Below are positions 13,878 to 50,732 of a DNA stretch of 64,000 nt, piece by piece. Origin of the DNA: Pseudomonadota bacterium (GTDB lineage: Bacteria > Pseudomonadota > Gammaproteobacteria > JAJDOJ01); assembly GCA_034722015.1 (NCBI GenBank), contig JAYENI010000081.1:6022-70021 (forward strand), given 5' to 3'. The stretch's first letter is position 1, and each line of letters begins with the position of its first letter. A model generated the notes under the pieces. That model did no database searches. It saw only the letters and a list, made by a program, of their open reading frames with translations, and had not been told where the DNA came from. Made by a program: the position numbers and the translations under genes.

Positions 13878-13992
13878 AGCGTAACATTTAAACGGTACGT
13901 TGATCTGCGGGGGTTTCTGCCTGCAGATTGAATAAACAAACGATGCAGCCGGGAAGTTCTGAACCGTACCGACAACAGGGTGTGTTCCTGCT

Positions 13993-14799: not shown

Positions 14800-14956
14800 G
14801 GCGATTTCTGGAAAATAACATACCAGCCTGCTTGTTTGTTCGTCCGTCTTCGGCGTTGCGCCAACGGTTGCATAGTTCGACTATGCGCCCGTTTCCGCGC
14901 CTTGAAGACGAACGAAAATCCTGCGCATTCTGGTATGTAATTTCCCGGCAATCGCC
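14800..14956. repeat. MITE-like element copy 2
   Basis: ggcgatttctggaaaataacatacc ... ggtatgtaatttcccggcaatcgcc. Flanked by CTAAG / CTGAG. Sits between convergent gene ends. Confidence 0.8.
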
Positions 14957-14965
14957 TGAGCGCTG

Positions 14966-16237: not shown

Positions 16238-16287
16238 GCCGGATTCCTCCGCGTTTGTCGTCTATCCCTGAAGGGGTTCGGTTGGTG

Positions 16288-16968
16288 TCAGCGCGCCACG
16301 AGCATGCGCATGCGGCTTCCCACCAGCTCGGCATGGTCAGCCAGCTCGCCCAGCCAGCGGGCGAGCTGGTAGGTGAAGATGGTGGAGACCGGGTCGGTGT
16401 CCTTGTGGTGCTGGTAGAGGTTGTTGACCACCTCGATGCCCAGCATGTCGGCGCCGTCCTCGCTCCTGGATACCTCGTCGATCAATTCGTAGACGCGGTC
16501 CAGGTCCGGGCCCTTGAAGCCCGTCTCTACCAGGGCGTCGAGCATCTTTATCACGTCCAGGGCCTTGTGCACGGTCTCCTGCGACTTGTTGGCCAGGGTA
16601 ATCAGCGGCTCTCGCAGTTCGCTCGAGACCTCCAGGTGGATCAGCAGCAGGCCGGCGATGTCCTGTGAGGTGTCCGCGATCTCCTCCTGTTCCCGCAGCA
16701 CGGCAATGACGTCGTGGCGGTGTACCGGTAGAAACTTGCTCTGGGACAGGCTGGAAGAGAGGCTGTCGAAGATTTCGTCGGCCTGGCTCTCCAGTTCGAA
16801 CACCTTCTCCCGGGCGCCCTGCAGGGCCTCTTCGTCCTCGTCGAACAGGGCGAGCAGCATGACGGGGACTTGTTCAACGCACTTCGATGCCAGTTTCATG
16901 TGCTTCTTAAGCGGCGGAAACGGGGAACCGCCCAATAGTTTCTTGAAGCTGATGGTCGTGGTCATGGT
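16288..16968 (-). CDS. DUF47 family PhoU-like phosphate transport regulator (PiT accessory protein)
   Basis: Co-oriented immediately upstream of pit, with the helical PhoU-like DUF47 pattern. Start taken at MTTTISFKK (16968), not the longer ORF. Confidence 0.8.
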   Translation of the reverse strand, partial: TMTTTISFKKLLGGSPFPPLKKHMKLASKCVEQVPVMLLALFDEDEEALQGAREKVFELESQADEIFDSLSSSLSQSKFLPVHRHDVIAVLREQEEIADTSQDIAGLLLIHLEVSSELREPLITLANKSQETVHKALDVIKMLDALVETGFKGPDLDRVYELIDEVSRSEDGADMLGIEVVNNLYQHHKDTDPVSTIFTYQLARWLGELADHAELVGSRMRMLVAR

Positions 16969-17705
16969 GTCGTTCCTCTCCTCGTTCGACGGGTTCACTC
17001 GTTCCGCCGGGCTTCGAGCGGGCTGGTCCGGCCGACCGATGCGATCAACATGGCGACCGTTGCGGATCTTCACGTAGGACGTGCCGGCCCCAATAACCTG
17101 AGTGCATGGAAATTATCATGCTATCGCACACTAACCTAGTTTTATTGGGCGATTTGTGCAAGCTGCCGGGGCCTGGAGAACAACGCCCGGAATGATCAAG
17201 AGCCTGCCCCATCGGTCTGTCGAGATTTTAGTCAGGTCGTCAACCGGGCCTGTGGCGCCGCGCGGTCGGCACACGGGCAATGGCGAAACAGGCCATGAAA
17301 AAAAAGTTTTGCCGTCAATCACATCGGGAAGCAGACAGCTCGTCCGCCGGGAAGTCATAGTAGAGAAACGCATTGAGCAGCCACGCCATCCCGATGCTCG
17401 TCACAGCGACCGGCAGCTTCATTGCAAAGTTGCGGATACGGACGGGATGGGTCTCCCCGGCCTTCATCTGCCGTTCCAGACAGATGCAGACGTTCAGGAA
17501 GGAACCGATGAGGACAGGGCTGTTCATGTCTGCCGTCATTTGCCTGTGATCGGGCATTTCCGGCGGCATTAAGGCCTCAGCCCGATGTCGTCCCTACGCG
17601 ACCATTGCAGGGAGCAGGTCCCTGTCAGGGACCTCTCGACACCTCTGGCAATTGCGCGGGCCGGGGAAGGTTGCGGGACGGTACGCCGTATACTGAATTG
17701 CTATT

Positions 17706-17724
17706 ATGACATGAATGTGACAAT
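17706..17724. promoter_or_regulatory. Putative Pho-box-like direct repeat (TGTCAC-N5-TGTCAT, 11-bp spacing)
   Basis: ATGACATGAATGTGACAAT in an AT-rich stretch ~100 bp upstream of nptA. Resembles PhoB-box half-sites CTGTCAT spaced 11 bp apart. Confidence 0.3.
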
Positions 17725-17825
17725 TATATTAGGGCCTGCATCAGCTGCTGCGAATGCAAAATGGCGGGGCCCTGCGGGCGTGATCGGGGTGCCTGGCTAG
17801 CGAAGATTACCCGAGGGATGCCATT

Positions 17826-19619
17826 ATGCTGCGCAAAATTCTGCTGCCCACCATTTTCCTTATTCTCGCCTGGGGATTCTGGGTCAGTCCCGACTTCAAG
17901 GAGATCGCCGCCGGGGTCTCCATTTTTCTGTTCGGTATGCTGTCGCTGGAAGAAGGGTTCCGCGCCTTCGCCGGCGGCACCCTGGAACACATACTCAAGA
18001 ACACGACAGACAAGCTCTGGAAGAGTTTGAGCTTCGGCATCGTCAGTACCACCCTGATGCAGTCCAGTTCGCTGGTCTCGGTGATTGCCATCTCCTTCCT
18101 GAGCGCGGGCCTGATCAGCCTTGCCGCCGGGGTCGGGATCATCTTCGGCGCCAATATCGGCACCACAACCGGCGCCTGGCTGGTCGCCGGCTTCGGCCTT
18201 AAGGTCAAGATCTCGGCCTACGCGATGCCGATGCTGGTCTTCGGCGTACTGCTGCTGTTCCAGAAATCCAAGGCCCTCAAGGGCATCGGCTACATCCTGA
18301 CCGGCCTCGGTTTTCTGTTTCTCGGCATTCACTACATGAAAGAGGGGTTCGAGGCGTTCAAGGACAGCTTCGACCTGGCCAGGTTCGCGGTCGCCGGCTA
18401 TCCCGGACTGTTCCTGTTCGCCGGCATCGGCATCGCGGCGACCGTGGTGATGCAGTCCAGTCATGCCACGCTGGTGTTGACCATCACCGCACTGGCCGCC
18501 GGACAGATCACCTACGAAAACGCACTTGCGCTGGCCATCGGGGCCAATGTCGGCACCACCATCACCGCCATCATCGGCTCGATGAGTGCAAACGAACAGG
18601 GCAAGCGGCTGGCCGCGGCACACCTGATCTTCAACCTGGTAACCGGCCTGATCGCGATCGTGTTCATTCATCAGATGGTGGCCGCGGTGGATTGGATCAG
18701 CGCCCACACCGGCATCGCCGAAGACGACCACACGCTGAAGCTGGCGGTGTTCCATACCCTGTTCAACACCATTGGTGTGCTGGTGATGCTGCCGCTGATC
18801 GGCAAGTTGGTCAAAACGCTCGAAGGCATGTTCGAACCCAAGGTACCGTCGGTCAGCCAGCCGAAGTACCTGTCGGACTCCGCCATCGATTTCCCGGATA
18901 CCGCGCTGGAGGCCATACGCCAGGAGACCCTGCGGGTCTGGGACCACACCATCGATATCCTGGCCGGGGTCTACGGATTCGAGCGTGGACAGGTCCTCTC
19001 GGATACCGACCTGGCGGCGGTCGCCGATTCTCAGCGCAAGCTGCCGGATTTCGACGTGGATTCAGCTTACGAGCAGCAGGTAAAGCCACTTTACAGCGCC
19101 ATTATCACGTTCATCAGCCGTGCAGGGTTCTCCTGGCAGGAGCAGCAGTCCGGGGACATCCACTGGCTGCGCGAGGCGAACCAGAACATGGTCGATGCAA
19201 TCAAGGCCGCCAAGCACATGCGCAAGAACCTCATGGCCGCGGTGGCGTCGACGGACGAGGGCCGGCGCGCGATCTACAACAACATGCGCGTCCAGCTGTC
19301 GCTGTTGATCCGTGAGCTGGAAAAAATTCGATCGGCGCCCGCGGACGAGCCCCCGGTGCTGTCCCTGGACCACATGCGCCTGATGCTGCACGAACACTGC
19401 GATGTCCTGAATGCGCGCATGGCCGAGGCAATGCGCGAAGATCGGATGTCCGGTGATGTGGCGACCTCGCTGCTGAACGATTCCAACTACGGACAGGAGG
19501 TCTTTCGCAAGCTCGTGGACATAGGCGAGACCCTGTTCGTCAGGCACGGGCGCAGTCTCAGCGATGCGGAGCGCGCGGTGCTGTTGAGCGACGACGAACT
19601 TCGCGCGCTCGAGTCCTGA
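17826..19619 (+). CDS. Na+/phosphate cotransporter (NptA, type II-like) fused to PhoU-like domains
   Basis: N-terminal transporter half with LMQSSSLVSVIAISF and GANIGTTTGAW repeats (Na_Pi_cotrans). C-terminal soluble half has PhoU-like helical repeats. Confidence 0.85.
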   Translation: MLRKILLPTIFLILAWGFWVSPDFKEIAAGVSIFLFGMLSLEEGFRAFAGGTLEHILKNTTDKLWKSLSFGIVSTTLMQSSSLVSVIAISFLSAGLISLAAGVGIIFGANIGTTTGAWLVAGFGLKVKISAYAMPMLVFGVLLLFQKSKALKGIGYILTGLGFLFLGIHYMKEGFEAFKDSFDLARFAVAGYPGLFLFAGIGIAATVVMQSSHATLVLTITALAAGQITYENALALAIGANVGTTITAIIGSMSANEQGKRLAAAHLIFNLVTGLIAIVFIHQMVAAVDWISAHTGIAEDDHTLKLAVFHTLFNTIGVLVMLPLIGKLVKTLEGMFEPKVPSVSQPKYLSDSAIDFPDTALEAIRQETLRVWDHTIDILAGVYGFERGQVLSDTDLAAVADSQRKLPDFDVDSAYEQQVKPLYSAIITFISRAGFSWQEQQSGDIHWLREANQNMVDAIKAAKHMRKNLMAAVASTDEGRRAIYNNMRVQLSLLIRELEKIRSAPADEPPVLSLDHMRLMLHEHCDVLNARMAEAMREDRMSGDVATSLLNDSNYGQEVFRKLVDIGETLFVRHGRSLSDAERAVLLSDDELRALES

Positions 19620-20830: not shown

Positions 20831-21493
20831 TTGACCGACCCCCCCCTTCCGTGCATCAATAATCGTCCGCACGAATCCACGCATTATCTGGCGTTTCGTA
20901 CCGGGGCGGTGGCCTCTGACACCGCATGGCGGCGCGTCTCGCCGTTCAAGGGCGTAGGCAGGCCGCGCACGCTGTTCCTTACCGACGTGCAAGTTCGGAG
21001 GCTGTTGGATCACGCTGACGGTGCGTTCCGTGGTCTGTGCGAGACAGTCATCGTCACCGGGGCCAGACCCGGAGAACTCGCCAATGCACGGGTACGTGAC
21101 TTCTCCCGCACGGACGGGACGCTGAGTCTGACCGGCAAGACCGGGCACCGGACGAGCTATCTGTCCCAGCAAGGGTTCGAGATGTTTACTCAGCTGTCGA
21201 GGGGGAAACTGCCCGGCGCATTGCTGTTGCCCAACGACGCGGGGATGCCGTGGCGTAAAGAACATTGGCGCGACTTGATGATGAGGGCAAGGAAGACCGC
21301 CCACCTGCCTGCCGACACGGTGATGTACTCACTACGTCATTACGCTGTGTCGAAGATGCTGGTTGCTGGCGTGGCCCCGCAGGTTACCGCGGAGAACACC
21401 GGCACGTCCATCCGCATGATCGAGCGGCACTACGGGAAATTCACCGCGCTCGACCGTCGCACGATGCTCGACCGGGTGGAGGTCGCGTTATGA
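20831..21493 (+). pseudogene. int: Tyrosine recombinase/integrase, catalytic domain only (5'-truncated)
   Basis: Box I VIVTGARPGELANARVRDF; box II YSLRHYAVSKM...IERHYGKF with catalytic Tyr. At 220 aa it lacks the N-terminal arm/core-binding domain. Confidence 0.75.
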
Positions 21494-21966
21494 GGGATCC
21501 GAAATACATCCGCGAGGTGACGCTCAAGAACGGCAGGTTGGGGGGGAGCGTGGGGGGCGTCTACGTCGCCGACCTCATGCAGGGTTGGGACGAAATCGGG
21601 GAAATACTCTCTGGCTCGGACGCGAGGAACCGTCTCGATGATTTCTTCCGAAACGAAATCGGAAAAAGATTCTCAGGCCCCGAGGCACAAGAACATATCG
21701 ACAGCTATCGGCGGGAGGTCAAAGCCGTCAAAGCGGGCCTAAAGCAAGCAGAAAGTTGTGAGAGGGGAGCAGAGAAAACCAACGAAACCCGACGGGAGCG
21801 GGCGCGGTGGTTGAACGAGCTTGTGGCGGACGAGTACCGGCAGTACAAAGACCGGCACCCCGACTGCACGGCGTCCGACGCAGCCCGGGCGATTCACAAA
21901 AACCACCCGGAGACGTTCGTCAGTTTCGAAGCGGTACGGCAGCGAATCAAGCGGTTGGGTCTCTGA
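21490..21966 (+). CDS. Hypothetical protein (island)
   Basis: ATGA overlap with the integrase stop. 159 aa, charged/helical, no family recognised. Confidence 0.4.
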   Translation: MRDPKYIREVTLKNGRLGGSVGGVYVADLMQGWDEIGEILSGSDARNRLDDFFRNEIGKRFSGPEAQEHIDSYRREVKAVKAGLKQAESCERGAEKTNETRRERARWLNELVADEYRQYKDRHPDCTASDAARAIHKNHPETFVSFEAVRQRIKRLGL

Positions 21967-22092
21967 CGAACGACCAAAGCAAGACGACGAAACGGCTCCC
22001 TCGGGGGCCGTTTTTTGTCGGTCGAAAATAGTTGGTCAAACGCTCTCCGTGTGACCAGACCAGTCGGGCAGACTGGGGGAACCTGTTGAAAA

Positions 22093-22347
22093 ATGGAGGT
22101 TCTTGCAGTGAGGCTCAACGAATTACCCATCGAACGACTGGCGTACAGCCCGGCAGAGTTGGCTGTCGCGACGAGCATCAGCCGGGCACAAATCTACCTG
22201 CTCCTCAACCAACGAAAGATCCGGGCGAGGAAGCTCGGCAAGCGGACAATCATCCTGCGCGCGGATGCGGAGGACTTTCTCGGCCGTCTGGAGGAGATGG
22301 TGGTGGTCGATCCTTCACAGGAGACGGATACAGAGAGGGTTGCGTGA
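22093..22347 (+). CDS. AlpA-like HTH regulator / excisionase
   Basis: YSPAELAVATSISRAQIYLLLNQRKIRARKLGKRTIILRADAEDFL matches the Phage_AlpA/excisionase HTH pattern. Confidence 0.55.
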   Translation: MEVLAVRLNELPIERLAYSPAELAVATSISRAQIYLLLNQRKIRARKLGKRTIILRADAEDFLGRLEEMVVVDPSQETDTERVA

Positions 22348-22889
22348 TGGGCAAGCACCTGACCCCGCTGGATGTCAACGGCACAACCATACATAACCAG
22401 AGTCGCGAGATGTATTCGCTCAATGACCTGTGGGAGGCGAGCGGTGGGAGTAACAGGCACCGGCCCTCTCACTGGTTGAAGCTCAAGCACCCCAAAGAGG
22501 TCATAAAGGAGCTGGAAAACGAGAATCCAAATGCAGGAATCCCTGCAATTAAACCCGTCCAGATCATCGCCGGAAAGTACGGCGGTAGATCGGAGTCGTA
22601 TGCACTCCTCACCGAGACGCAGGCGTACTTCCTCCTGATGCTGTCTCGGAACTTGTCGCCGGAGGGGGGGGCGATGAAATCAATCGCACTGACCCGTGAG
22701 GGCACGTCGTTCCTCGCCGATTCGCGGATGCTCTCGGATCGGTTGAAAATCGCACATCATCAAGTGTACCGGACGATTCTGAAATATGAAGCCGATATTC
22801 GAGACCTCGAAGACGGTCGAATTCTTCGTTTTGAAAGCGAGAAAATAATCTCCGGTCGGGACGCCCGTGCATTGAGGAGAAGACGATGA
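22347..22889 (+). CDS. KilA-N-like domain protein (phage)
   Basis: N-terminal LNDLWEASGGSNRHRPSHWL resembles the KilA-N DNA-binding domain. TGATG overlap with the upstream gene. Confidence 0.4.
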   Translation: MGKHLTPLDVNGTTIHNQSREMYSLNDLWEASGGSNRHRPSHWLKLKHPKEVIKELENENPNAGIPAIKPVQIIAGKYGGRSESYALLTETQAYFLLMLSRNLSPEGGAMKSIALTREGTSFLADSRMLSDRLKIAHHQVYRTILKYEADIRDLEDGRILRFESEKIISGRDARALRRRR

Positions 22890-23434
22890 ACGACGACAAG
22901 AAAGACGACCAGACCCCGACAGGTAGTGGTACTGAAATAGTCGGGCCTGTACCACAGATCATCCCCCTGACTGCCGGAATCGCAGTAGAGCATGGGTTGG
23001 AACGACAGTACGTCTACATTGGCGCAACGCTGGATCTGAACAAGGTCATGCCGAGTGGAGTGAAGTGGCAAAGCTTCAGCAAAAAATACGTGGAGTTCCG
23101 AAAGGTCGTACCCACACCCGGAACACTGAGCGAAGTTGATGACCACGCACGGGCGTTCATCGACTATGCCGGATACACCGAAGCCAAGGCGGAAGGCGCA
23201 GTGGTGTGGGTCATCTGGCGCGTATGGGAACTGAAAGGCAAGTCGAAGCTGATACTAGATGCAGATGCAAGACGCGATGTGCTCAATGCTATCGAAGCCA
23301 GGAAATTAATATTCGTAAATCGAAATAGATCGCAACAAAAAATATCATTGCCACGAAGGATATCGGACTCGGAACACGAAGACAGGCTGGCTACCTTGAT
23401 TGCTGTTGGTAAATATGCCAACATCCATCAATGA
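22886..23434 (+). CDS. Hypothetical protein (island)
   Basis: 182 aa, lower-GC 3' end, no family recognised. Confidence 0.35.
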   Translation: MNDDKKDDQTPTGSGTEIVGPVPQIIPLTAGIAVEHGLERQYVYIGATLDLNKVMPSGVKWQSFSKKYVEFRKVVPTPGTLSEVDDHARAFIDYAGYTEAKAEGAVVWVIWRVWELKGKSKLILDADARRDVLNAIEARKLIFVNRNRSQQKISLPRRISDSEHEDRLATLIAVGKYANIHQ

Positions 23435-23778
23435 GTAAGGATACGAGAGCCATCTCATGGATCAAGGCGGCGCACAAAGAGTTCGGGAGGTTTCCCCAGG
23501 GTGCGCAGACAATCATACTCCGGGCTTTGACGATTGCTGCTGAGGGCAGCAAGGCGGATATAGCGAAGCCGATGAAGGGCCTGGGTTCTGGTGTTATTGA
23601 GGTTGCTCTTGCTTATCGGTCTGATGCCTATCGGACGGTGTACGCCGTTACATTGGGTGAGGATATCTGGGTTGTCCATGCATTCCAGAAGAAGTCCACC
23701 CGCGGCATCAAGACACCGAAGAAAGATGTCGATTTGATCCGTTCTCGGATCAGTCAATTGAAGGAGCAGCTACGATGA
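23431..23778 (+). CDS. higB: Type II toxin, HigB/RelE-like (Gp49/DUF891-type killer protein)
   Basis: ~115 aa. Toxin gene lies upstream of an XRE-HTH gene with a 4-bp overlap, which is HigBA architecture. Confidence 0.65.
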   Translation: MSKDTRAISWIKAAHKEFGRFPQGAQTIILRALTIAAEGSKADIAKPMKGLGSGVIEVALAYRSDAYRTVYAVTLGEDIWVVHAFQKKSTRGIKTPKKDVDLIRSRISQLKEQLR

Positions 23779-24086
23779 CGAAGAAACTGGAAACCGTCAA
23801 TGGCAGTGGTAACGTTTTTCGGGACTTTGGTTATCAAAATGCCGACGTTGAACAACTCAAATCTCAACTGGCGGCTGAGATTATCCGGGTTCTTGATAAG
23901 CAGAAACTTTCTGTTCGCAAAGCAGCGGAAAAGACTGGCTTTGATCATGCGGATTTCTCACGGATCAGGAATGCAGATCTGGGTCGTTTCACTATTGACC
24001 GGCTGGTAACGGTGTTAAATCGTCTGAACCAGCGTGTCGAAATCAAGGTAACGCCTTTTCGTGGAAGGCGACCCAAGACCGCCTGA
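23775..24086 (+). CDS. higA: HigA-like XRE-family HTH antitoxin
   Basis: LSVRKAAEKTGFDHADFSRIRNADLGRFTIDRLVTVLNRL is HTH_XRE-like. Confidence 0.65.
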   Translation: MTKKLETVNGSGNVFRDFGYQNADVEQLKSQLAAEIIRVLDKQKLSVRKAAEKTGFDHADFSRIRNADLGRFTIDRLVTVLNRLNQRVEIKVTPFRGRRPKTA

Positions 24087-24210
24087 TAATGGTGCCAAAT
24101 CAGACCGGCTGGTAAGCAACTAGGCGGTCTGAAGTGGACCCCGAAAATTGGACAGGTTGATAAGTTAAGGAATGCGAGCGCGATTAACCGCAACGCAGAG
24201 GCAATCAACC

Positions 24211-24507
24211 ATGTCAAGAAAACGCAAAATTCATGCGCCCGAGTTCAAGGCCAAGGTCTCCCTTGAAGCGATCAAGGGGATGAAGACCACCAGCGAACTG
24301 GCCAGTCGGTATCAGGTTCACCCGGTCCAGATCAGTGCCTGGAAAAAGCAGGCAATCGAGAGCTTGCCCGAAACCTTCAAGCGGGGCAAGGCAGCGAAGC
24401 AACCCCTCACCGAGCAGGCGCTCACCGCGCCCCTGTTCGAGGAGATCGGGCGTCTGAAACTAAGTAGCCGCGACGTGACGTATAAGACAGTCACCAGTGC
24501 CTCTTGA
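24211..24507 (+). pseudogene. IS3-family transposase OrfA fragment
   Basis: MSRKRKIHAPEFKAKVSLEAIKGMKTTSELASRYQVHPVQISAWKKQ is the IS3/IS911 OrfA HTH. The C-terminus diverges and truncates. Confidence 0.65.
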
Positions 24508-24707
24508 ACACAACGGCAGAAATCAGCTTGTCAATTCCCTGATTACTAGAGTGTGAGCACTAGGCTGAATGAACTGTTAGAAAATTCAACACCTGTAAAA
24601 AAAAGAAATGTAATGGAAAATATAATAGTAATCGGTGGTGGTTTTGCCGGTTTTTGGGCCTATCTAGGCACAGCACGTCTGGTCATAGAGAATGAGGCGA
24701 ACATACG

Positions 24708-25100
24708 ATGAAGGCAATCATCCAGGACAAGTACGGGTCACCTGATGACGTCCTGGAACTCAGAGACATCGACGCGCCGGTTGTCAACGACGATCAGGTG
24801 CTGGTACGCGTTCACGCGGTGGGCCTCCATGCAGGCGATTGTTTCGCTGTGAGATGCGCACCGTTCCCCGTGCGTATGGTCGCCGGTCTGCTCAAACCAA
24901 AATACGGTGTTCCGGGATACGACGTGGCAGGGCGGGTCGAGGTGGTCGGCAGCAATGTGAAGCGATTCCAACCCGGCGATGAGGTGTTCGGTGCGTGCGC
25001 CGGTACTTGCGCCGAGTATGCATGTGCCAGAGAAGACGAACTCGCACACAAGCCCGCGAACCCGGTTACGCCGACTTTCTTTGGTCAGTCGATCCAAAGT
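24708..25100 (+). pseudogene. Zn-dependent alcohol dehydrogenase / quinone oxidoreductase N-terminal fragment
   Basis: MKAIIQDKYGSPDDVLELRDIDAPVVNDDQVLVRVHAVGL... The frame degenerates after ~130 aa. Also a 32-aa NAD/FAD-binding N-terminal fragment (MENIIVIGGGFAGFWAY) at ~24613-24711. Confidence 0.5.
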
Positions 25101-25146
25101 ACACGATATCCGGTGTTTTTCTCCCCAGCGACTGGTGCCGTCGTTC

Positions 25147-25362
25147 TCAGTTTAAGAACGTCATATACCGCCCGATCGAACTACATGCCTGCGCGCTACT
25201 GTCGTAGGCCTTCAGGTAGACCTCCTCGTTCAGACTGCGCCACAGCCGCTCGACGAACACATTCGTGCACTCGTGGAACATGGATCGCTCGCCAACAGGG
25301 AGGGACAGCCTCACCCGTTCCCGGGCAGGATATCGCCGATCGATTTCGGACTCATTTCCCAC
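25147..25362 (-). pseudogene. Transposase C-terminal fragment (DDE integrase core end)
   Basis: NVFVERLWRSLNEEVYLKAYDS resembles the C-terminal end of IS3/IS481-type transposases. Confidence 0.45.
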
Positions 25363-25517
25363 CCGGCAAACCGCCGACTCGCACCGGCATCCACTCCGTC
25401 ACTTGATTCTGGAAAATCTACAGAAATCCTGTCAGGGAATGCCGATCCTTGGAGTCATTTCCCCCCTGTTTTCATCGGTGTGACGACCACGGCGAATCCG
25501 TTCTAACCCGCCTGATT

Positions 25518-25823
25518 TCACGTGAGGCGAGATCGCGGTTTGGAATTGTTGGTCACACGCAGGTAGTCGAAGACAAGTCGGACGTTACGGGCGAGTTTTC
25601 GGATGGTGGCGGCGACGCTGTCGCGGCTTCTGGACTTGATCAGGCCGACGGCGAAGCGTCGCAGGCAGGTGATGTTCGCCGGGCCATGGCCGGTACGCAG
25701 GGTGCAGCGGTCTTCGTCCCAGTTCCAGTCCGGGATGTAGTGGTGGCTTTCGACGCGCCAGTGATGGCGATTGAAGGCCAGTAAGCGGGCAGCATCGGCG
25801 CTCTGTGGGGTGTGGCTGGTCAC
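25518..25823 (-). pseudogene. ISAs1-family transposase C-terminal fragment
   Basis: HHWRVESHHYIPDWNWDEDRCTLRTGHGPANITCLRRFAVGLIK matches the ISAs1 / H-repeat protein C-terminus (RGHWGIEN...DVTF.ED...R.GN.A.N...LRH.ALNLL). Confidence 0.6.
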
Positions 25824-25974
25824 GCCGTAGACGGTTTCGGTAGAAACCGTCTATTGACATCCCAAAAAAGTGGGAATAAGATCCCAAAAAATTATGAGCG
25901 TCCGACACCACTGTGAATGGGGGTTCGCAGGGTCGCTCACAGAGAAAACCTGGATTTCTACAGACCTTCGAATT

Positions 25975-28737
25975 ATGGGAGCAATCGTCGTGATGCCAGT
26001 TCGCCGAACAGATTTCTGCCTCCGCCACTATGTCATTTTGCTTCTGTCTGCAATTTTGCTGCTGGCTTTCAGCGGTTGCGGCGAACAACAGGCGACCGAG
26101 ACGGCCGCGCTCGTTGTTTCGGGCGAGTCGGGTGCGGCTGCAGACAGACGCGACCCGTTCAGGATCGACGAAGCGCAGTGGAAGAGGGAAGAATCCCTGC
26201 TCAGGGTGAAGGGCAAGGGGAACAAGGGAGCCAGCGTTGCGATCTCCAATGCCGATACACTGATCCTGCTGGGCCAGGTCAGGGTTGACGACGAATGGGA
26301 ATTTCGCAACTCCGACCTTGGAGCCGTTCCGTGCCGTGTGAGGGCAGAGCAATCCGATGGGCAGATTGCCGAGATGGCGGTAAAGGATGCACCCGAGGAT
26401 TGTGCAGGTGGCATCGCCGGAGGCCAGCCGGGTGTCGCGAGCGGCTTCGCGCTGCTGGGGGCCAATGACCTGGGTATGCGTTGCGCCGACCTCGACTACC
26501 AGATATTCAGCATCCTTCCGCCGTTCAACGTGGTTCACGCCCAGGCGATCGAGAAGGGTACTTCGAACAGCCTTCCCCGGATCCTTGATGGTACCGAGGT
26601 GGCTGTCACATATCATGCCGCCAGCAGTGCCGACGATCCTGCCGGGGCGGGTTCGATCAACACGACAAGCCAGAATTCACCCGTTGCTTTCAAGTCCAAT
26701 TTCTGGGAAGACAGTGGCCATCCGGTCCCCCTGAGTGGAAGCGCCGGCAACAACTCATGGGGTGGACTGGCTTACGGGCCGCTCTACCCGAGCGTACTGG
26801 CCGGCGCACTGGTCCCGCCGCCTGCCGGCCCCCTGAACCTTGCCGGAGAATGCAGTGTTCCTGCAACCCCCGCCGGTTGCCCCAGCATCCTGAATCTGTT
26901 CGAGCCCTTGCCCGCGGACACCGGGATACCCGTGCCGGACCCCAATGCGCTTTCTCCCGTGGCGGGTTCGCCGGAACTGGTGACCGCGCAGCAACACATG
27001 CCCGGTCCTGCCAACATCCCGCAGGAGTTTGACCGCTTCGACAGGGACCTCGCTTTTTTTGTCGACTTTCCCTTCGGCAGCCGTGTGACGAATGTCAACT
27101 GGTTTGCCGCGGACGGTGTACCAATCATGCCCGTCGACGATGACGGGCGAGGTAACGCCTACCCGTTAATGCAGCTTACCGCCCGTGACAAGGGTACGCA
27201 CGACGAGATGGCTTCGCTGGATGTCGTCCTGCCGGTTGCTTCCGAGGCCGATTGCCAGAACTGTCACGTGGAGCCAATCGACTGTGCGGATCCGTCCCTG
27301 CCGGGCGAGGTGCTTGCCAATTCCGATGCGTGTATCGGCGCGGCAGTGTCTCAAACCACTTTTCAGGTAGAAACGCTGGACGACAACCCCCCGGGAAATA
27401 CGCGACTCGAGCAGTTGCTGAATACCGCCAAGGTCAACGTTCTTCGGTTGCACGACATGAAGCACGGGGACAAGTATCGCAACTGGGACGCTGGAAACAA
27501 TCTTGCTGCCAGGGTATGCGATTCCGTTGCCGATCCCCAGGACCCGGATTGCCTGGCCAACCAGACGCCGATCCAGTGTTCACGCTGCCACTACACCCCG
27601 GCGCTTGATCTGGCCCAGGCGGGTCCGGTTGACGAGCCCGAACAGGGCCTGAACGGCCGCCAGCAGACCGTTCACATCAGCATGTCGCGTGCCATGCACT
27701 TTCACCATGGGAATCTACCGCCGTTCGAAGGCAGACCCCTGTTCCCGGCGATGCCGGCGCCGGATAGTCCCGAGCGATCCGCGGGCGCCCTCGCAGTCAA
27801 CGATTTCGAACAGAAGGTGCTGGGCGAGACCTGCTACCAGTGCCATCCGGGAAAGCGCACCCAGTGTCTGCGCGGCGCCATGTTTGCGGGTGGCGTGGTT
27901 TGTCAGGACTGCCACGGCGCCATGGCGCAGGTGGGTAGCGACTTCACCGGGAATTTTCCGAATACACCGTTTCCGGCAGGTGCGGACCTGAGCAGGCGCG
28001 TACCCTGGGCCATCGAGCCGAAGTGCCAGTCCTGCCATACCGGTGACGCCAACAATCCCGGTCACCCCAATGGCGCCATTGTGGCCGATGACGGTATTCG
28101 TTTGTTGCAGGCGTTCGCGAAAGGCGACGCCGACGCCACGCCCATTGGACGTCCGGACTCCCGATTCGCGGAGAACACGGGCCAGAACGGGAATGGAGAT
28201 ACGGTCGATGTCTTGTATCGCTTGAGTACGGGTCATGGCGGTGTGATGTGCGAGGGCTGCCACAACTCCACTCATGCGATCTGGCCCGTGCAGAATCCGT
28301 TCGCCAACGACAACATCGCGTCCGACCAGTTGCAGGGGCATCAGGGTACCGTCGTCGAATGCAATACCTGTCACGACCCCGAAAACTTCCGGAAGGGAGG
28401 ACTCCTGGATCCGCAGAACAGCGGCGATTTACTGAAGGGGCCGCACGGCATGCATCCGGTGCCGATGGAAACGGGTGGGCTCACAATGACTGCGACTCAC
28501 TTCGTGGATGGCGGCCACGAGGAGATCGCGGAAAATGACAAGGACGCCTGCCGCGCCTGCCACGGAAAAAACGGTGAAGGGACTGTGCTGTCCCGGGTCG
28601 CAGTGAATCGCACTTTTGTCGTCGAAGAATGCAAGAAGGGCGACCTGTGCCCCGGGCAGGAGATCGAGAACTTTACGGTAGAGCTGTCCAGGGGAACGCA
28701 AGTGAGCTGCACGCTCTGCCACGAAAACGAACTCTAG
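25975..28737 (+). CDS. Nonaheme c-type cytochrome lipoprotein (~920 aa; N-terminal ~450-aa heme-free domain)
   Basis: Lipobox LLLAFSGC. Nine CxxCH motifs: CQNCH, CSRCH, CYQCH, CQDCH, CQSCH, CEGCH, CNTCH, CRACH, CTLCH, all in the C-terminal half. Confidence 0.85.
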   Translation: MGAIVVMPVRRTDFCLRHYVILLLSAILLLAFSGCGEQQATETAALVVSGESGAAADRRDPFRIDEAQWKREESLLRVKGKGNKGASVAISNADTLILLGQVRVDDEWEFRNSDLGAVPCRVRAEQSDGQIAEMAVKDAPEDCAGGIAGGQPGVASGFALLGANDLGMRCADLDYQIFSILPPFNVVHAQAIEKGTSNSLPRILDGTEVAVTYHAASSADDPAGAGSINTTSQNSPVAFKSNFWEDSGHPVPLSGSAGNNSWGGLAYGPLYPSVLAGALVPPPAGPLNLAGECSVPATPAGCPSILNLFEPLPADTGIPVPDPNALSPVAGSPELVTAQQHMPGPANIPQEFDRFDRDLAFFVDFPFGSRVTNVNWFAADGVPIMPVDDDGRGNAYPLMQLTARDKGTHDEMASLDVVLPVASEADCQNCHVEPIDCADPSLPGEVLANSDACIGAAVSQTTFQVETLDDNPPGNTRLEQLLNTAKVNVLRLHDMKHGDKYRNWDAGNNLAARVCDSVADPQDPDCLANQTPIQCSRCHYTPALDLAQAGPVDEPEQGLNGRQQTVHISMSRAMHFHHGNLPPFEGRPLFPAMPAPDSPERSAGALAVNDFEQKVLGETCYQCHPGKRTQCLRGAMFAGGVVCQDCHGAMAQVGSDFTGNFPNTPFPAGADLSRRVPWAIEPKCQSCHTGDANNPGHPNGAIVADDGIRLLQAFAKGDADATPIGRPDSRFAENTGQNGNGDTVDVLYRLSTGHGGVMCEGCHNSTHAIWPVQNPFANDNIASDQLQGHQGTVVECNTCHDPENFRKGGLLDPQNSGDLLKGPHGMHPVPMETGGLTMTATHFVDGGHEEIAENDKDACRACHGKNGEGTVLSRVAVNRTFVVEECKKGDLCPGQEIENFTVELSRGTQVSCTLCHENEL

Positions 28738-28769
28738 CAACGATTCCTCCAGGTAGTCTCCTGTTGTAT

Positions 28770-28800
28770 GCGCCCATGTCACCATGGGCGCATTTTTTTT
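28770..28800 (+). terminator. Rho-independent terminator
   Basis: GCGCCCATG-tcac-CATGGGCGC hairpin followed by a T8 run, just downstream of the cytochrome stop. Confidence 0.8.
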
Positions 28801-29030
28801 GGGGATCCGATGCGAGGCACGGCTATTCTTTCCGGCGCCGGGGCAAGGGCCCCGCGCGACTTGATTCACGTCAAGCAGGGACGCGAAAGTTTATTTTTGC
28901 CCGGGGAATCTGTAATCGTACGGATAGTAAATCGGGCCGTGCGGGCCTAGAAAGAATATAGGAGTGGGGGAAAATCGTTGGTTTGACACGATGCGGACTT
29001 CGGTTCGCGGGATGTTAAAGGAGGTGTTCC

Positions 29031-29549
29031 ATGAGAAGGAGAACGTTGGCGTTGTTGTCTGCGCTTGTACTCATCGGTCTTCCGATGAACGCGCAGGCGT
29101 ATTCTGTGGCGGACGTGGCTGGCTGTTACGCCGTGCAGTTTGATGGCCAGGTCTTGCTGGATCCGACCACGGGGCAATTTGTGCCTGAAAACGGGCTGGC
29201 CCGTTTTTGCTCAGACGGCGCAGGGAACCTAACCGGCGTCGTTGGTTACTCAAAGATCGCGGGTTGCGCGCTCGTGACCTACACGTTGGGAGGTCCTTCC
29301 ACGTATACCGTCAGTGAAGGTGGCGGGGGCGTGATATCGATTGATCTCAAGGTCGTTGAGGCAAGGGACCTTTGCCAGGGCGCGGTCCAGTTGCCGATCG
29401 TCGCGGGTGAGAGGGCCGTGATGAGACAACTGTTCTATCTCGACGCCGAAGGCGTCATTCACACTATCGGACTGGATACGGCATTTCCGGACAATCCGGT
29501 CATGCCGTTCCTGCCTGAAGTGTCGTCGGGTACTGCCTGGAAGCAATAG
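29031..29549 (+). CDS. Secreted hypothetical protein
   Basis: Signal peptide MRRRTLALLSALVLIGLPMNAQA. 172 aa, no family recognised. Confidence 0.5.
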   Translation: MRRRTLALLSALVLIGLPMNAQAYSVADVAGCYAVQFDGQVLLDPTTGQFVPENGLARFCSDGAGNLTGVVGYSKIAGCALVTYTLGGPSTYTVSEGGGGVISIDLKVVEARDLCQGAVQLPIVAGERAVMRQLFYLDAEGVIHTIGLDTAFPDNPVMPFLPEVSSGTAWKQ

Positions 29550-34885: not shown

Positions 34886-35041
34886 GGCGATTGCCGGAAA
34901 ATGACATACCAGATCACGCCGGATTTTCGTTCGTCTTCAAGGCGCGGCAACGGGCGCATAGTCGAACTATGCAACCGTTGCCACAACGCCGAAGACGGGC
35001 GAAAAGACAAGTGAGGTGGTACATGATTTGACAGAAATCGC
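34886..35041. repeat. MITE-like element copy 5, flanked by direct CTTAG
   Basis: cttag|gcgattgccggaaaatgacatacc ... atttgacagaaatcgc|cttag. Confidence 0.85.
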
Positions 35042-35078
35042 CTTAGCAGCGTTGCATCTGGCAGAAAGACGATCGGAC

Positions 35079-35834
35079 ATGACTGCCTGCGATTCGCAAA
35101 ACCACGGCCCGGATATACGTGCGCAACTTCTCGAACTGTATACGCGCCTGGCAAATGAACCCGACTCGGATTTTGGCTGGGGAAGAGGTAAGGACAATGC
35201 CCGCGCGCTGGGCTATCCTGAAGACTGGTTGAATCGCCTGCCGGACGGTGTCTGGGAGTCAGCCGCGGCAGTTGGCAATCCCTTTAGCCTGGGGCCGATC
35301 CGTGCCGGCGAAACTATCGTCGATATCGGTTGTGGTGCGGGTGCCGATGCTTGTGTTGCAGCGCTACTGGTTGGAGGAAAAGGCAAGGTAGCCGGTATCG
35401 ACTGTACGCCGGCGATGATTGATAAGGCGGCATCGAACGCCGCTGTGTCCGGTTTCTCGCAGATCGTCTATCACGAAGCGGAGATGGCGGCGCTTCCGCT
35501 GCTTGGCGCCAGTGCGGATGTGGTGATATCCAACGGCGCCATCAACCTTGGCGAGAGTAAAACGGCCGTTCTCGGGGAGATCTTCCGGGTGCTTCGGCCT
35601 GGCGGCCGTCTGCAAATCGCCGACATGGTCCGCGATCCATCGCAAGGACGCGCCGTCTCCTGCAATAGCGAAGAATCCTGGGCGGACTGTGTCTCCGGGA
35701 CATTGGAGCCGGACGTGTTTATATCGATGTTGACACAAGCCGGCTTCGTTCAGGTGGAATTGACGGGATTCACTGGGTACAAGACTGCGCCTGCTACGAC
35801 TGGTGCGTTGATAAGGGCCGTCAAGCCGCGTTGA
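35079..35834 (+). CDS. ArsM-like class I SAM methyltransferase lacking two of the conserved catalytic cysteines
   Basis: GETIVDIGCGAGADA (SAM motif I) and RVLRPGGRL. Collinear with ArsM, but the GCGNP box reads AVGNP and the SNCVINL box reads SNGAINL; the third Cys is conserved (ADCVSG). Confidence 0.65.
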   Translation: MTACDSQNHGPDIRAQLLELYTRLANEPDSDFGWGRGKDNARALGYPEDWLNRLPDGVWESAAAVGNPFSLGPIRAGETIVDIGCGAGADACVAALLVGGKGKVAGIDCTPAMIDKAASNAAVSGFSQIVYHEAEMAALPLLGASADVVISNGAINLGESKTAVLGEIFRVLRPGGRLQIADMVRDPSQGRAVSCNSEESWADCVSGTLEPDVFISMLTQAGFVQVELTGFTGYKTAPATTGALIRAVKPR

Positions 35835-36483
35835 CGGTGCCGGCCTGACCGTCCGGGGAGGGCATTTCCGGTACCCTGAGGAATGAACCGGGGCAACACC
35901 GCATTCTGAAACAAATCTGTCGAGCGTGATCTGTGTCCGCGGGTGGCTGGCGCACGGTGTGAGCCACACGCGCTGACGCCGGGGGATGCGCGCACGGTAT
36001 GCAACCGCAGTCCTTCGTCGAGTTATCGGCACACACCTTGCTATTGGTTCGGACGAAGCCGCGGGCTGGGACCGGGACGAGAACTACGTACAAGTCCTCG
36101 TAAGGCGAGCCGACAATCCCTAACGGTGTCGGGGACCTCGTCCGGGTATTCTTTCGACCGAACGAGGTCGCCACGGATGACGAGCCCCGGACTCGCAAGC
36201 AAAGCGGGAAAGCACAGCGCTGCAAGATATCGTCGAGCTTGCAGGGAACACTTCGCTGCGTCCCTGGGAGGAGCGTGTCGGCTTTCCGGGCTTCGCATCA
36301 GTCATCCAACCTGGCACTGCCCGGGTGGGTCAGGCACATCCTCGAGGAGACGGCGAGGGGCGTGATCGGGACGGTGCCCTACGGGAACGATCGCGCTGCC
36401 CTGGCGGACATGCCGAATCGACCCGGGGTACCGCGTTGCGCCTGACGGTCGTCCGGATCCCGGTAGCGCGAGAACTCACTTAG

Positions 36484-36530
36484 GCGATTGAAGGAAAATG
36501 ACATACTGGAATGCGCCTTATTCCCAACCC
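36484..36530. repeat. MITE-like element, partial copy (one terminus only)
   Basis: ggcgattgaaggaaaatgacatactggaatgcgcc. Confidence 0.6.
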
Positions 36531-36721
36531 GAATCGGAGGGCAGCGCAATGGCACACAAGGATTTCAACGTCCTGAATCTGTGTAAGGCGTTCTCGGAGT
36601 GGCGGAACCGGATCTCCCTCTTCGTGAACCTGCCCTTCGAGTCCCTGGATAGGTTGAGGTTGCAGGAGAAGCTCGATGAAATCGGTCAGCTCGTGCTGCC
36701 GGAGACCGAAGCGGTGGCGGA

Positions 36722-37645
36722 ATGAGGCGCTGGATACTGCTTTCACTGCTCGGGTTGCAGGCCCTGGGCGGCGCCTGGGCCTATACGCCGACCGCGACTC
36801 AGGTCGCCGGGGACGTCTATGCCATCGTGGGACCGACCGACGGCCGTACGGCCGAAAACCACGCCCTGAACAACAACCTCGGTTTCGTGGTCACGCCCGA
36901 AGGCGTGGTGCTCATCGACAGCGGTGCGTCGGCCGAAGGCGCGAGGCTCGTCGAGGCGGCCGTTCGCACGGTCACGGACCAGCCGGTCCGCTGGGTCATC
37001 AATACCGGGAGCCAGGACCACCGCTGGCTGGGTAACGACTACTTTCGTCGCCAGGGCGCCAGGATCATTGCCCTGGGCCGTACCGTCGAGACGCAGCGGC
37101 GGTTCGCCGACCAGCATATGGCAAGACTCGAACCGATCCTGAAGGATGACTTCGCCGGCACGCAGCCCGCGACCGCCGATCCGGCCGCCGACACCGATCG
37201 GCTGGAGCTGAATCCCGGTGGCGTGCCGCTGGTTCTGCTCTATCCGGGTGACGCGCATTTCCCCGGGGACGCGGTCCTCTGGTTGCCGGAGCAGAAGGTC
37301 CTGTTCAGCGGGGACCTGATCTACGTGGACCGGATGCTGGACGTCCATCCCTGGAGCGACGTGCGCAGCTGGCGCGAGGCCTTCCGCCGGGTCGAGGCGC
37401 TGCAGCCGGAGGTGATCGTGCCCGGTCACGGCAGCGTGTGTGACCTCGCGAAGGCGCGGCGCGAGAGCGGCGACTATCTCGACTGGCTGGTCGAGCAGGT
37501 CGGCGCGGCGGTCGCCGACTGGGAAGAACTGGACCACGTGGTCGATCGCCTGGGCGATGAGCCCCGGTTCGCGCACCTCGAGCACTTCGACGACTGGCAC
37601 CGCACGAACATCAACCGCACCTACCTTCAACTGGAGGGGCAGTAG
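36722..37645 (+). CDS. MBL-fold metallo-hydrolase, secreted
   Basis: Signal peptide MRRWILLSLLGLQALGGAWA. MBL motifs: INTGSQDHRWLG near the HxHxDH position, and GDAHFPGD. Confidence 0.75.
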   Translation: MRRWILLSLLGLQALGGAWAYTPTATQVAGDVYAIVGPTDGRTAENHALNNNLGFVVTPEGVVLIDSGASAEGARLVEAAVRTVTDQPVRWVINTGSQDHRWLGNDYFRRQGARIIALGRTVETQRRFADQHMARLEPILKDDFAGTQPATADPAADTDRLELNPGGVPLVLLYPGDAHFPGDAVLWLPEQKVLFSGDLIYVDRMLDVHPWSDVRSWREAFRRVEALQPEVIVPGHGSVCDLAKARRESGDYLDWLVEQVGAAVADWEELDHVVDRLGDEPRFAHLEHFDDWHRTNINRTYLQLEGQ

Positions 37646-37648
37646 CCC

Positions 37649-38761
37649 GTGAGCGCCCAATGTGAGGCTACTGCCAGGCGCGCCGCCGGCGGTGCCATGG
37701 GGTTCTTCGAACGCTACCTGACGCTGTGGGTCGGGCTGTGCATCGTCGCCGGTATCGTGCTGGGCCATTGGCTGCCCGCGGTGTTCCAGGCCATTGGTCG
37801 CATGGAGGTCGCGCGGGTCAATCTGCCGGTGGCGGTGCTCATCTGGCTGATGATCATCCCCATGTTGCTGAAGGTCGACTTCACGGCCATGCATCACCTG
37901 AAGGAACACTGGAAAGGCGTCGGCGTCACCCTGTTCATCAACTGGGCGGTCAAGCCCTTTTCGATGGCCCTGCTGGGCTGGCTGTTCATTCGCGGGGTGT
38001 TCGCGCCCTACCTGCCGGCGGACCAGATCGACGCCTATATCGCGGGGCTGATCCTGCTCGCCGCGGCGCCCTGCACGGCGATGGTGTTCGTGTGGAGCCG
38101 CCTGAGCGGTGGTGACGCCAACTTCACCCTGACCCAGGTGGCGCTGAACGACACCATCATGATCTTCGCCTTCGCGCCGATCGTGGGCCTGCTGCTCGGG
38201 CTGTCGGCGATCGCCGTGCCCTGGGACACGCTGTTCCTCTCCGTCGTGCTTTATATCGTCATTCCGGTCGTCTTCGCCCAATGGTGGCGCCGCCGGGTCC
38301 TGGGCAAGGGTGGGGTAGCGGCGCTGGAACGTCTGCTGGACACCCTGCACCCGATCTCGCTCGCCGCCCTGCTGGCGACGCTGGTGCTGCTGTTCGGTTT
38401 CCAGGGCAGGCAGATCCTGGCACAGCCGCTGGTGATCGTCATGCTGGCCGTGCCGATCCTGATCCAGGTGTATTTCAACTCGGGCCTTGCCTACTGGCTC
38501 AACCGGCGGTTCGGGGTCGCGCACTGCGTGGCGGCCCCCTCGGCCCTGATCGGGGCGAGCAACTTCTTCGAACTCGCGGTGGCGACCGCCATCGTGCTGT
38601 TTGGATTCGATTCCGGCGCGGCCCTGGCGACGGTTGTCGGGGTGCTGGTGGAGGTGCCGGTCATGCTCTCGGTGGTGAGGATCGTGAACGCGACGCGCGG
38701 ATGGTACGAGCGTGGCGCGCCGGCCCGGATCTCTCCTGGTAGCGGAGGCGGGACCCGATAG
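37649..38761 (+). CDS. acr3: Arsenite efflux transporter, ACR3 family
   Basis: MGFFERYLTLWVGLCIVAGIVLG is the classic Acr3 N-terminus; ~10 TM segments. GTG start at 37649, alternative ATG at 37697. Confidence 0.85.
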   Translation: MSAQCEATARRAAGGAMGFFERYLTLWVGLCIVAGIVLGHWLPAVFQAIGRMEVARVNLPVAVLIWLMIIPMLLKVDFTAMHHLKEHWKGVGVTLFINWAVKPFSMALLGWLFIRGVFAPYLPADQIDAYIAGLILLAAAPCTAMVFVWSRLSGGDANFTLTQVALNDTIMIFAFAPIVGLLLGLSAIAVPWDTLFLSVVLYIVIPVVFAQWWRRRVLGKGGVAALERLLDTLHPISLAALLATLVLLFGFQGRQILAQPLVIVMLAVPILIQVYFNSGLAYWLNRRFGVAHCVAAPSALIGASNFFELAVATAIVLFGFDSGAALATVVGVLVEVPVMLSVVRIVNATRGWYERGAPARISPGSGGGTR

Positions 38762-38889
38762 TTCGATACCGGAAGGTAGCTGAGTATCAGGGGCAAACAG
38801 GATTGTGATTTCGGCCGGCGTCTCAGGGTGACGGAGACCGTGTCCGGGCCCGCGATTCGGGCGTGAATTCAACTCGGGGAGATAGGGTG

Positions 38890-39891: not shown

Positions 39892-39893
39892 CC

Positions 39894-40163
39894 ATGGACT
39901 GGAAGGTGCTCGGACTGGTCTTCGGCACGGTGTTCGTCGCCGAACTGGGTGACAAGACGCAACTCGCCACCCTGCTGTTCGCGGCGGACAAGGACGTCGG
40001 CAAGTGGACGGTGTTTTTCGGCGCGTCCCTGGCCCTGATCGCCACCTCGGCCATCGGGGTGCTGGGCGGCGCCGTGATCTCGCAGTACGTGAGTGAGCGA
40101 ACCCTGCACGTCATTGCCGGGGTCGGGTTCATCCTCATCGGCGTCTGGACGCTGTTGCGGTAG
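39894..40163 (+). CDS. UPF0016 (GDT1/TMEM165-like) half-size membrane protein
   Basis: ELGDKTQLATLLFAA signature (E-x-G-D-K-T). 89 aa, 3 TM segments. Confidence 0.55.
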   Translation: MDWKVLGLVFGTVFVAELGDKTQLATLLFAADKDVGKWTVFFGASLALIATSAIGVLGGAVISQYVSERTLHVIAGVGFILIGVWTLLR

Positions 40164-40170
40164 CGGGTCG

Positions 40171-50727: not shown

Positions 50728-50732
50728 AATCC

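Follow-up and report, generated by a model that had tools for sequence, protein, structure and literature searches.

We analyzed a stretch of 64,000 nucleotides (hereafter the window) from contig JAYENI010000081.1 of a Pseudomonadota bacterium (assembly GCA_034722015.1). An intact open reading frame (ORF) on the + strand, positions 25870-28737, encodes a lipoprotein with nine CxxCH heme-binding motifs behind a heme-free N-terminal part. This gene had been picked out from the letters alone, in what we call the sequence-only reading, as that of an unusual nonaheme cytochrome c. In the present study, we found that its product belongs to a large, strictly conserved nine-heme family that has no name in databases. 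Judged by its alignment to the other members, the window protein is a clear homolog of this family, and its allele is atypical at a defining residue.

The gene and the layout of its product

The longest version of the ORF opens at GTG 25870. The sequence-only reading had placed the start at ATG 25975, from which 920 codons run unbroken, and the length of 920 amino acids that it gave holds for this start. However, a Shine-Dalgarno-like GGGAG (25978-25982) is located about 10 nt 5' of another ATG at 25993, and none precedes 25975; because of this, we favor ATG 25993 as the probable start, which would give a precursor of 914 amino acids. The choice between the two starts leaves the lipobox Cys, the heme positions and the mature protein unchanged, and residue numbers in this text follow the 920-residue numbering (start 25975). 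The features of the gene are listed below, with the predicted local distance difference test (pLDDT) of an AlphaFold2 model where a domain is predicted.

25854-25882, + strand: sigma-70-type promoter-like site TTGACA-17-TAAGAT (10/12 consensus; a consensus match only)
25993-28737, + strand: most likely coding sequence of the nonaheme lipoprotein (914-residue precursor; signal peptide MPVRRTDFCLRHYVILLLSAILLLAFSG followed by C)
26056-26079, + strand: lipobox LLLAFSGC, read from the sequence; the codon of Cys35, predicted to be lipidated, is 26077-26079
26155-26394, + strand: immunoglobulin (Ig)-like β-sandwich, residues 61-140 (pLDDT 87-96; only part of the family has this domain)
26440-27249, + strand: heme-free β-rich domain, residues 156-425, the family signature (pLDDT mostly >85)
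26464-26484, + strand: NDLGM(R)C loop, residues 164-170 (family motif NDLGMHC; Arg169 codon CGT at 26479-26481)
27250-28734, + strand: nonaheme domain, residues 426-920 (nine CxxCH; the C-terminal ~495 residues)
27253-27267, 27577-27591, 27832-27846, 27901-27915 and 28024-28038, + strand: CxxCH motifs 1-5, from the sequence
27387-27392, + strand: C6 homopolymer inside the gene (C7 in an independent Logan assembly, with the frame broken)
27865-27882, + strand: Cys631-Leu-Arg633-Gly-Ala-Met636, between heme motifs 3 and 4 and outside the heme motifs; invariant in the family
28249-28263, 28360-28374, 28549-28563 and 28708-28722, + strand: CxxCH motifs 6-9, from the sequence
28768-28803, + strand: intrinsic terminator-like hairpin and T-run (11-bp stem with 7 G-C pairs, 4-nt loop)

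The lipobox named in the sequence-only reading is present, and the residue after Cys35 is Gly, so that the Asp signal for inner-membrane retention is absent from position +2. The strong terminator that had been assigned to the gene was also found; its hairpin (28768-28793) begins 31 nt 3' of the stop codon and is followed by T8.

All nine canonical CxxCH motifs lie in the C-terminal part, as had been claimed, at residues 427, 535, 620, 643, 684, 759, 796, 859 and 912, and none is found before residue 427. When the residues of the protein were shuffled, a mean of 0.04 and a maximum of two CxxCH motifs were obtained. The layout of a heme-free N-terminal half followed by the hemes holds, the heme domain occupying ~495 residues (~480 in the sequence-only reading). 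The heme-free part of ~450 residues had been taken as a single large domain, which is not what the structure prediction gave. The AlphaFold2 model, built on 104 homologs, has a pLDDT of 80.8 and a predicted template-modelling score (pTM) of 0.79; confidence is high in the β-domains and over the greater part of the heme domain. The model consists of a signal peptide and disordered tether (residues 1-60), an Ig-like β-sandwich (61-140), a separate, conserved β-rich domain (156-425) and the heme domain (426-920). Many homologs cover only 83% of the window protein, without the Ig-like domain, for which the best Foldseek matches were bacterial Ig-like adhesin domains, none of them significant (best E 3.7e-3). 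Of the two heme-free domains, only the β-rich one is conserved throughout the family.

The heme domain closes with a β-hairpin and is predicted to be continuous, with no β-domain between its heme modules. The half with hemes 1-4 aligned with the half with hemes 5-9 (hhalign probability 85%, E 5.8e-6), and the two halves look like the products of an internal duplication. A second AlphaFold2 model, of the heme domain alone, was built on 16 aligned sequences and discarded as too poor (pLDDT 42.6).

An unnamed nine-heme family and the allele of the window

A word-indexed search yielded at least 538 homologs, the best of them ~60% identical to the window protein, which are all unnamed, 'hypothetical' or annotated plainly as 'cytochrome C'. 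Identities of the window protein to members of the family range from 33 to 65%. In a scan with one genome per species, loci of the family were found in at least 596 species genomes. The carriers are mainly Thiotrichales/Thiotrichaceae, Thiohalomonadales, Thiogranum, Sedimenticola, Ca. Thiodiazotropha, Thioploca and Chromatiales, as well as Burkholderiales and Rhodocyclaceae, with a few Rhodobacterales and Desulfobacteraceae. The word 'unusual' thus calls for some qualification, as the architecture lacks annotation and is yet far from rare. When the profile and structure searches proposed in the sequence-only reading were made for the β-rich domain, its profile alone matched 1,325 of 1.84 billion cluster representatives (clusters at 50% identity) at E<=1e-3, and there was no match in the PDB by sequence or by Foldseek. 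All of the full-length matches to this profile carry the nine CxxCH motifs; in two of them a tenth is located outside the nonaheme domain. In one gammaproteobacterial metagenome-assembled genome (MAG), two members stand in tandem (L022, 7725-12553), a local duplication.

We found no published description of this family in the literature, and the other nonaheme cytochromes that have been reported (OcwA, the MtoC of ES-2 and the NHC of Ferrigenium) are different proteins. The MHCscan survey mainly reports proteins with more than ten hemes (PMC11475568).

None of the nine CxxCH motifs varies in the 104 close relatives or in the 193 diverse full-length ones. In the diverse set, the invariant residues outside these motifs include Asn164-Asp-Leu-Gly-Met-His-Cys170, Asp172, Asp174, Cys631, Arg633 and Met636. 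Furthermore, nine additional His residues of the heme domain are invariant (493, 575, 578, 754, 767, 789, 824, 827 and 848); these could be distal ligands, enough for bis-His ligation of all nine hemes. Since nine such residues are present, the hemes are most probably all bis-His. The window protein has the family layout, nine CxxCH motifs after the conserved β-domain, and keeps Cys631, Arg633 and Met636 together with the nine conserved His residues. It departs from the family at the loop, which reads NDLGMRC. In the 260 other database proteins that carry the motif, down to ~33% overall identity, the residue is His in every case.

One possible explanation of such strictness is that the protein is a redox enzyme, which we regard as rather unlikely on the whole. 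The β-domain and heme 1 would form the active site (Met168-His169-Cys170, Asp165, Asp172, Asp174, Cys631, Arg633 and Met636), either with a His/Cys- or Met-ligated heme or with a Cys/His/Met metal site. The other eight hemes would carry electrons to or from a small substrate, for example a sulfur compound, in the periplasm or outside. The absolute conservation of NDLGMHC (260/260) would be unusual for a docking surface, and Cys631, Arg633 and Met636 are likewise invariant; conceivable roles of these three are a disulfide with Cys170, metal binding or the lining of a substrate site. Cys-ligated hemes with a nearby Arg are typical of SoxA, TsdA and DsrJ, which we count in favor of an enzyme, as we do the concentration of the family in sulfur-oxidising lineages (Thiotrichales, Thiohalomonadales, Sedimenticola, Ca. 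Thiodiazotropha, Thioploca and Chromatiales) and the position of the gene, mostly an orphan with no conduit partner, as expected of a self-contained enzyme. However, the nine invariant non-motif His residues already suffice for six-coordination of all nine hemes, and Cys170 and Cys631 could be a mere structural disulfide. The marks of the catalytic multiheme enzymes (NrfA, HAO/ONR, Otr and MccA) were not found: all nine motifs are canonical CxxCH, with no variant such as CxxCK or CX15CH, and searches of Pfam, NCBIfam and the PDB gave no family match and no similarity to NrfA, HAO, Otr, MccA, SoxA or TsdA apart from stray weak matches. The carriers among Burkholderiales, Rhodocyclaceae, Rhodobacterales and Desulfobacteraceae likewise speak against the enzyme.

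The codon CGT at 26479-26481 makes the window protein the sole exception to the invariant His169 among all of the family sequences examined. The only other NDLGMRC is in P0006, the same gene in the Logan assembly of run SRR26901932. Over 3,750 nt, the Logan contig (L083) differs from the window by an additional C and a single-nucleotide polymorphism (99.95% identity). The extra C makes a C7 run (1573-1579 of the contig) at the place of C6 in the window (27387-27392), and the resulting frameshift cuts the product (P0006) to 571 amino acids. The difference between C6 and C7 is either a population variant or pseudogene, or an error of sequencing or assembly. Look-ups of the exact sequence with three alternative starts returned no record of an identical full-length protein.

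The window copy may thus be functionally altered or starting to decay; alternatively, the differences may be tolerated or may be assembly noise. An impaired allele in this genome, with His169→Arg damaging the protein and a frameshift in some cells while the family functions elsewhere, seems to us quite unlikely. It would agree with the occurrence of Arg169 in two assemblies as the only deviation from His in the family, with the truncation caused by C7, with the missing record of an identical protein and with the degraded mobile island that the gene abuts. However, the ORF of the window is intact over 920 codons, and the promoter-like site and the terminator are intact as well. Of 244 alignment columns with a conservation of at least 90%, the protein agrees with 243 and misses only His169, whereas the median homolog deviates in four. 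Furthermore, the homopolymer difference may be no more than a sequencing or assembly error, and Arg sometimes substitutes functionally for His.

Kinship with MtrC/OmcA, export and the proposed role

MtrC, OmcA and MtrF have ten CxxCH motifs (UndA eleven) in two pentaheme domains, and the order of domains in the MtrC type is β-barrel I, pentaheme II, β-barrel III and pentaheme IV. The sequence-only reading held that the protein recalls MtrC/OmcA and yet does not fit them in heme count and layout, and our comparison agrees with it: there are nine hemes and not ten, no β-domain between the modules, no mtrA/mtrB neighbor and a PF22113 score below threshold.

Among 47 diverse members, PF22113 (MtrC/MtrF domain II/IV) matched 32 at E<=0.01 (best E 7.4e-14). 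Its 30-bit cut-off was passed by 13 of the 20 members inspected singly, often with two stretches spanning both heme halves. TIGR03507 (OmcA/MtrC family) gave weak matches in 5 of the 47 and the DmsE model in 6; there was a single stray match to TIGR04315 or NrfB. The other Pfam matches of the window protein are only generic (Cytochrome_C7). Searches of PDB sequences at E<=10 that started from the window protein and from two family profiles gave nothing but stray monoheme or sensor matches, the relative most like MtrC brought up nothing useful either, and Foldseek of the full model against the PDB gave no match at E<=1e-3, its list being mostly insignificant Ig-like hits. One entry, 3B47 ('Methyl-accepting chemotaxis protein'), reached E 0.03 to the last β-strands and heme 1. 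It was rejected as evidence together with PF21563, which matched five relatives; in one of them (P0246) the match spans little beyond a CxxCH region elsewhere in the protein. Thus, the searches of Pfam, NCBIfam and the PDB returned no clear match to a characterized family with the same architecture.

The heme domain is best read as two tandem, distantly MtrC-like modules, and the signals of PF22113 and, weakly, TIGR03507 in relatives indicate a distant kinship of the heme modules and not membership of MtrC/OmcA. The protein shares with MtrC, OmcA, MtrF and UndA of Shewanella, lipoproteins of Gram-negative bacteria, a lipobox (as do ~40% of the family), a heme-free β-rich domain before the multiheme modules, two related heme modules in tandem, enough conserved His for all hemes to be bis-His and, in many relatives, PF22113 scores above the cut-off. 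In contrast to them, the family has nine hemes instead of 10 or 11; one conserved β-domain with an NDLGMHC loop, which Pfam and Foldseek do not recognize as MtrC domain I or III; no β-domain between the heme modules in the AlphaFold2 prediction; no mtrAB neighborhood; and many members that are soluble and not lipidated. Ordinary membership in the MtrC/OmcA/MtrF/UndA clade, with a role on top of a porin-cytochrome conduit of the MtrAB type, is very improbable for this protein. The lipobox, the similarity of relatives to PF22113 and the weak TIGR03507 matches in 5 of 47 speak for it. We nevertheless place the protein outside this clade because it has nine hemes, not ten or eleven, has no β-barrel domain between the heme modules and matches no family model, being below the cut-off of PF22113 and without a match to TIGR03507. 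In addition, no chain of MtrC, OmcA, MtrF or UndA was matched in the PDB even at E<=10, and mtrA or mtrB was not a neighbor in any of 82 loci of the family (20-kb loci in which all ORFs were clustered).

Other cytochromes with nine hemes also differ from the family. OcwA is not known to have the N-terminal β-domain or the NDLGMHC loop. It is alike in its nine c-type hemes and its proposed role in terminal electron transfer at the cell surface (TherJR_2595 of Thermincola potens; bioRxiv 10.1101/641308 / PMC6703420), and differs in that it comes from a Gram-positive organism and shows no sequence similarity at E<=10 and no significant Foldseek match. The 'MtoC' of Gallionella ES-2 (PMC5566968) and the NHC of Ferrigenium straubiae (bioRxiv 10.64898/2026.01.22.701106) also have nine heme motifs and come from chemolithotrophic Proteobacteria. 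However, their anchor is in the inner membrane, and their genes stand beside those of membrane or FeS (iron-sulfur) partners or in mto operons, whereas members of the present family carry a signal peptide of the lipoprotein or secretory kind, are mostly encoded by orphan genes and have a link to type II secretion.

As for export, the sequence signals indicate that the window copy is probably exported and anchored in the outer membrane by its lipid. Of the 104 homologs, ~40% have a lipobox and most of the others seemingly ordinary signal peptides; in many lipidated members, the Cys is followed by a long tether rich in Gly, Ser and Asp. In Magnetospira sp. QH-2 (L001, FO538765.1 1451430-1474018), the ortholog is located inside a type II secretion cluster, with gspE-H and gspK-I on one side and gspL-M-N-D on the other. 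Its stop codon overlaps the start of the next gene, of the PilN family (GspL-like), and it looks like a cargo gene inside its own secretion operon. Type II secretion genes also adjoin the gene in Sedimenticola thiotaurini, a Rhodocyclaceae MAG and another gammaproteobacterium, in a different arrangement each time. This adjacency amounts to 4 of the 82 loci over 912 kb of flanking sequence, where a rough estimate of chance is ~0.5 loci.

Cargo genes of type II secretion are known beside the secretion genes, such as that of PulA with the pul genes and that of SslE with the gsp operon of E. coli. The cytochrome gene of Magnetospira in its cluster, overlapping the next gene, and the adjacency in three other lineages resemble these cases; unlike them, the arrangement is limited to the four loci and does not extend to the window copy, with no type II secretion genes within the 64-kb window. 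In relatives, the additional N-terminal domains are of extracellular type (PKD, Big_2, TIG, fn3, cadherin and dockerin). Very long extensions with PKD, Big_2 or dockerin precede the β-domain and nonaheme core in P0202 (1841 amino acids), P0246, P0282 and others, which suggests a possible tethering to extracellular structures. The adjacency to type II secretion genes, the extracellular add-on domains and the long tethers suggest a location outside the periplasm. Members would fit the role of surface-exposed or released cargo of type II secretion, by analogy with MtrC and OmcA, whose delivery to the surface by this system is established; the link of the nonaheme family to it takes the form of gene adjacency.

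Taken together, we consider it moderately probable that the protein is an outer-membrane-anchored nine-heme electron wire, probably surface-exposed via type II secretion, with two distantly MtrC-like modules and a novel conserved β-domain as its docking or reactive end. We infer the surface location, the bis-His ligation, the wire function and the role of the β-domain. The protein would be exported by Sec, cleaved by signal peptidase II, acylated at Cys35 and sent to the outer membrane, from where a type II secretion system would deliver it to the cell surface, by analogy with MtrC/OmcA. Family proteins that start with an ordinary signal peptide would instead leave the cell as soluble cargo. 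In two related MtrC-like modules, the nine hemes, for all of which bis-His ligation is most probable, would form a wire from the envelope to an extracellular redox partner, for which a mineral, a solid sulfur or iron phase, a shuttle or another cell are candidates. The conserved β-domain, at the heme-1 end of the wire, would be a likely site of partner docking, ligand binding or catalysis.

Several results weigh against the wire. No mtrA- or mtrB-like gene, as a porin or periplasmic decaheme, was found in the 82 loci, within the limits of the loci themselves. Another ORF with at least two CxxCH motifs was present in only 3 of the 82, and none is adjacent in the window. No conduit partner that would take electrons across the outer membrane lies near the gene, which is the weakest point of the wire model and the strongest argument for an enzyme. 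A link to type II secretion is absent from 78 of the 82 loci. The invariant Met168-His169-Cys170, together with Cys631, Arg633 and Met636, exceeds the needs of a plain wire and hints at catalysis or metal binding, and the Arg169 allele may be unlike the rest of the family in function. The window protein itself scores 16 bits with PF22113, below the cut-off of 30, and has no match among the NCBIfam models at E<=1, TIGR03507 included; neither Foldseek nor the PDB searches gave a structural match to MtrC, OmcA, UndA or OcwA.

A further-reaching reading, in our view unlikely, is that the family is a very widespread class of type II-exported cytochromes in which an invariant His-Cys(-Met) site of the new β-domain, catalytic or substrate-binding, is wired to eight relay hemes. 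With such proteins, Gamma- and Betaproteobacteria that oxidise sulfur, among them relatives of chemosynthetic symbionts, could exchange electrons directly with solid sulfur or iron phases, shuttles or partner cells and would need no classical MtrAB conduit.

Outer-surface multiheme cytochromes serve bacterial electron exchange with minerals, electrodes and each other, and the characterized families come from a few metal reducers. Many carriers of the present family are sulfur oxidisers of sediments and vents or related to symbionts, and are not regarded as electroactive. If surface-exposed and active, the protein would be a concrete candidate, open to testing, for the molecule by which these organisms exchange electrons with the outside, for example when they use solid-phase sulfur or iron or pass electrons on to cable bacteria. 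The heme-free domain with its invariant His-Cys loop is a further new object of study, and the natural His169→Arg allele is a ready test of the importance of the loop.

Neighborhood, host and other loci of the window

The neighborhood comparison proposed in the sequence-only reading showed, over the 82 loci, only recurrent neighbors; clustering of the ORFs gave no universal partner gene. Two-component systems like QseBC/PmrAB were found in ~11 loci, with scores below the NCBIfam cut-offs. A pair of DUF6502 and a multi-repeat DUF5666 lipoprotein was found in ~10 loci plus L086, in varying order and orientation, and the two may be functional partners of the cytochrome. Examples of the pair are at L011 377-2697 and L086 5438-7609, with others in L012, L013, L017, L036, L043 and L082. 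Crp/Fnr regulators and an ECF (extracytoplasmic function) sigma/anti-sigma pair also recur. None of these neighbors is present in the window.

The window gene is a stand-alone unit between a degraded island and a small secreted protein (29031-29549), located downstream, which is not conserved elsewhere. The 'decayed island' that had been described directly upstream is plausible: the region 20831-25823, upstream of the promoter, contains an integrase fragment, an HTH_17 (excisionase-like) protein, a Gp49-like toxin with an HTH_37 antitoxin, a transposase HTH fragment and a truncated ADH_N. In addition, an antisense ORF of 101 amino acids (25518-25823) appears transposase-like by eye and has no Pfam match.

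The Ppx encoded in the window is ~60% identical to those of Sedimenticola and of tubeworm and Solemya symbionts; by this similarity, the host is an uncultured gammaproteobacterium near the group of sulfur-oxidising Sedimenticola and symbionts.

A separate multiheme cluster is located ~20 kb from the nonaheme gene, at 48748-51557 on the + strand. It encodes a 427-amino-acid lipoprotein with eight CxxCH motifs, the lipobox AAGC and c554/c552/MtrC-like matches in Pfam, a protein of 225 amino acids with three CxxCH motifs and a C-terminal transmembrane helix, and a cytochrome b561/Ni_hydr_CYTB protein of 291 amino acids. This cluster looks like a quinol-linked octaheme redox module.

The region 35016-41388 encodes an S-adenosylmethionine (SAM) methyltransferase, a metallo-β-lactamase-fold protein, an SBF/ACR3-like transporter, GAPDH and a major facilitator superfamily (MFS) transporter, and presumably resembles an arsenic-resistance island with a GAPDH/ArsJ pair. 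The region 4953-19619 is rich in phosphate genes, with Ppx/GppA, a SulP permease, a PHO4 phosphate transporter, a PhoU-like DUF47 protein and a Na/Pi cotransporter.

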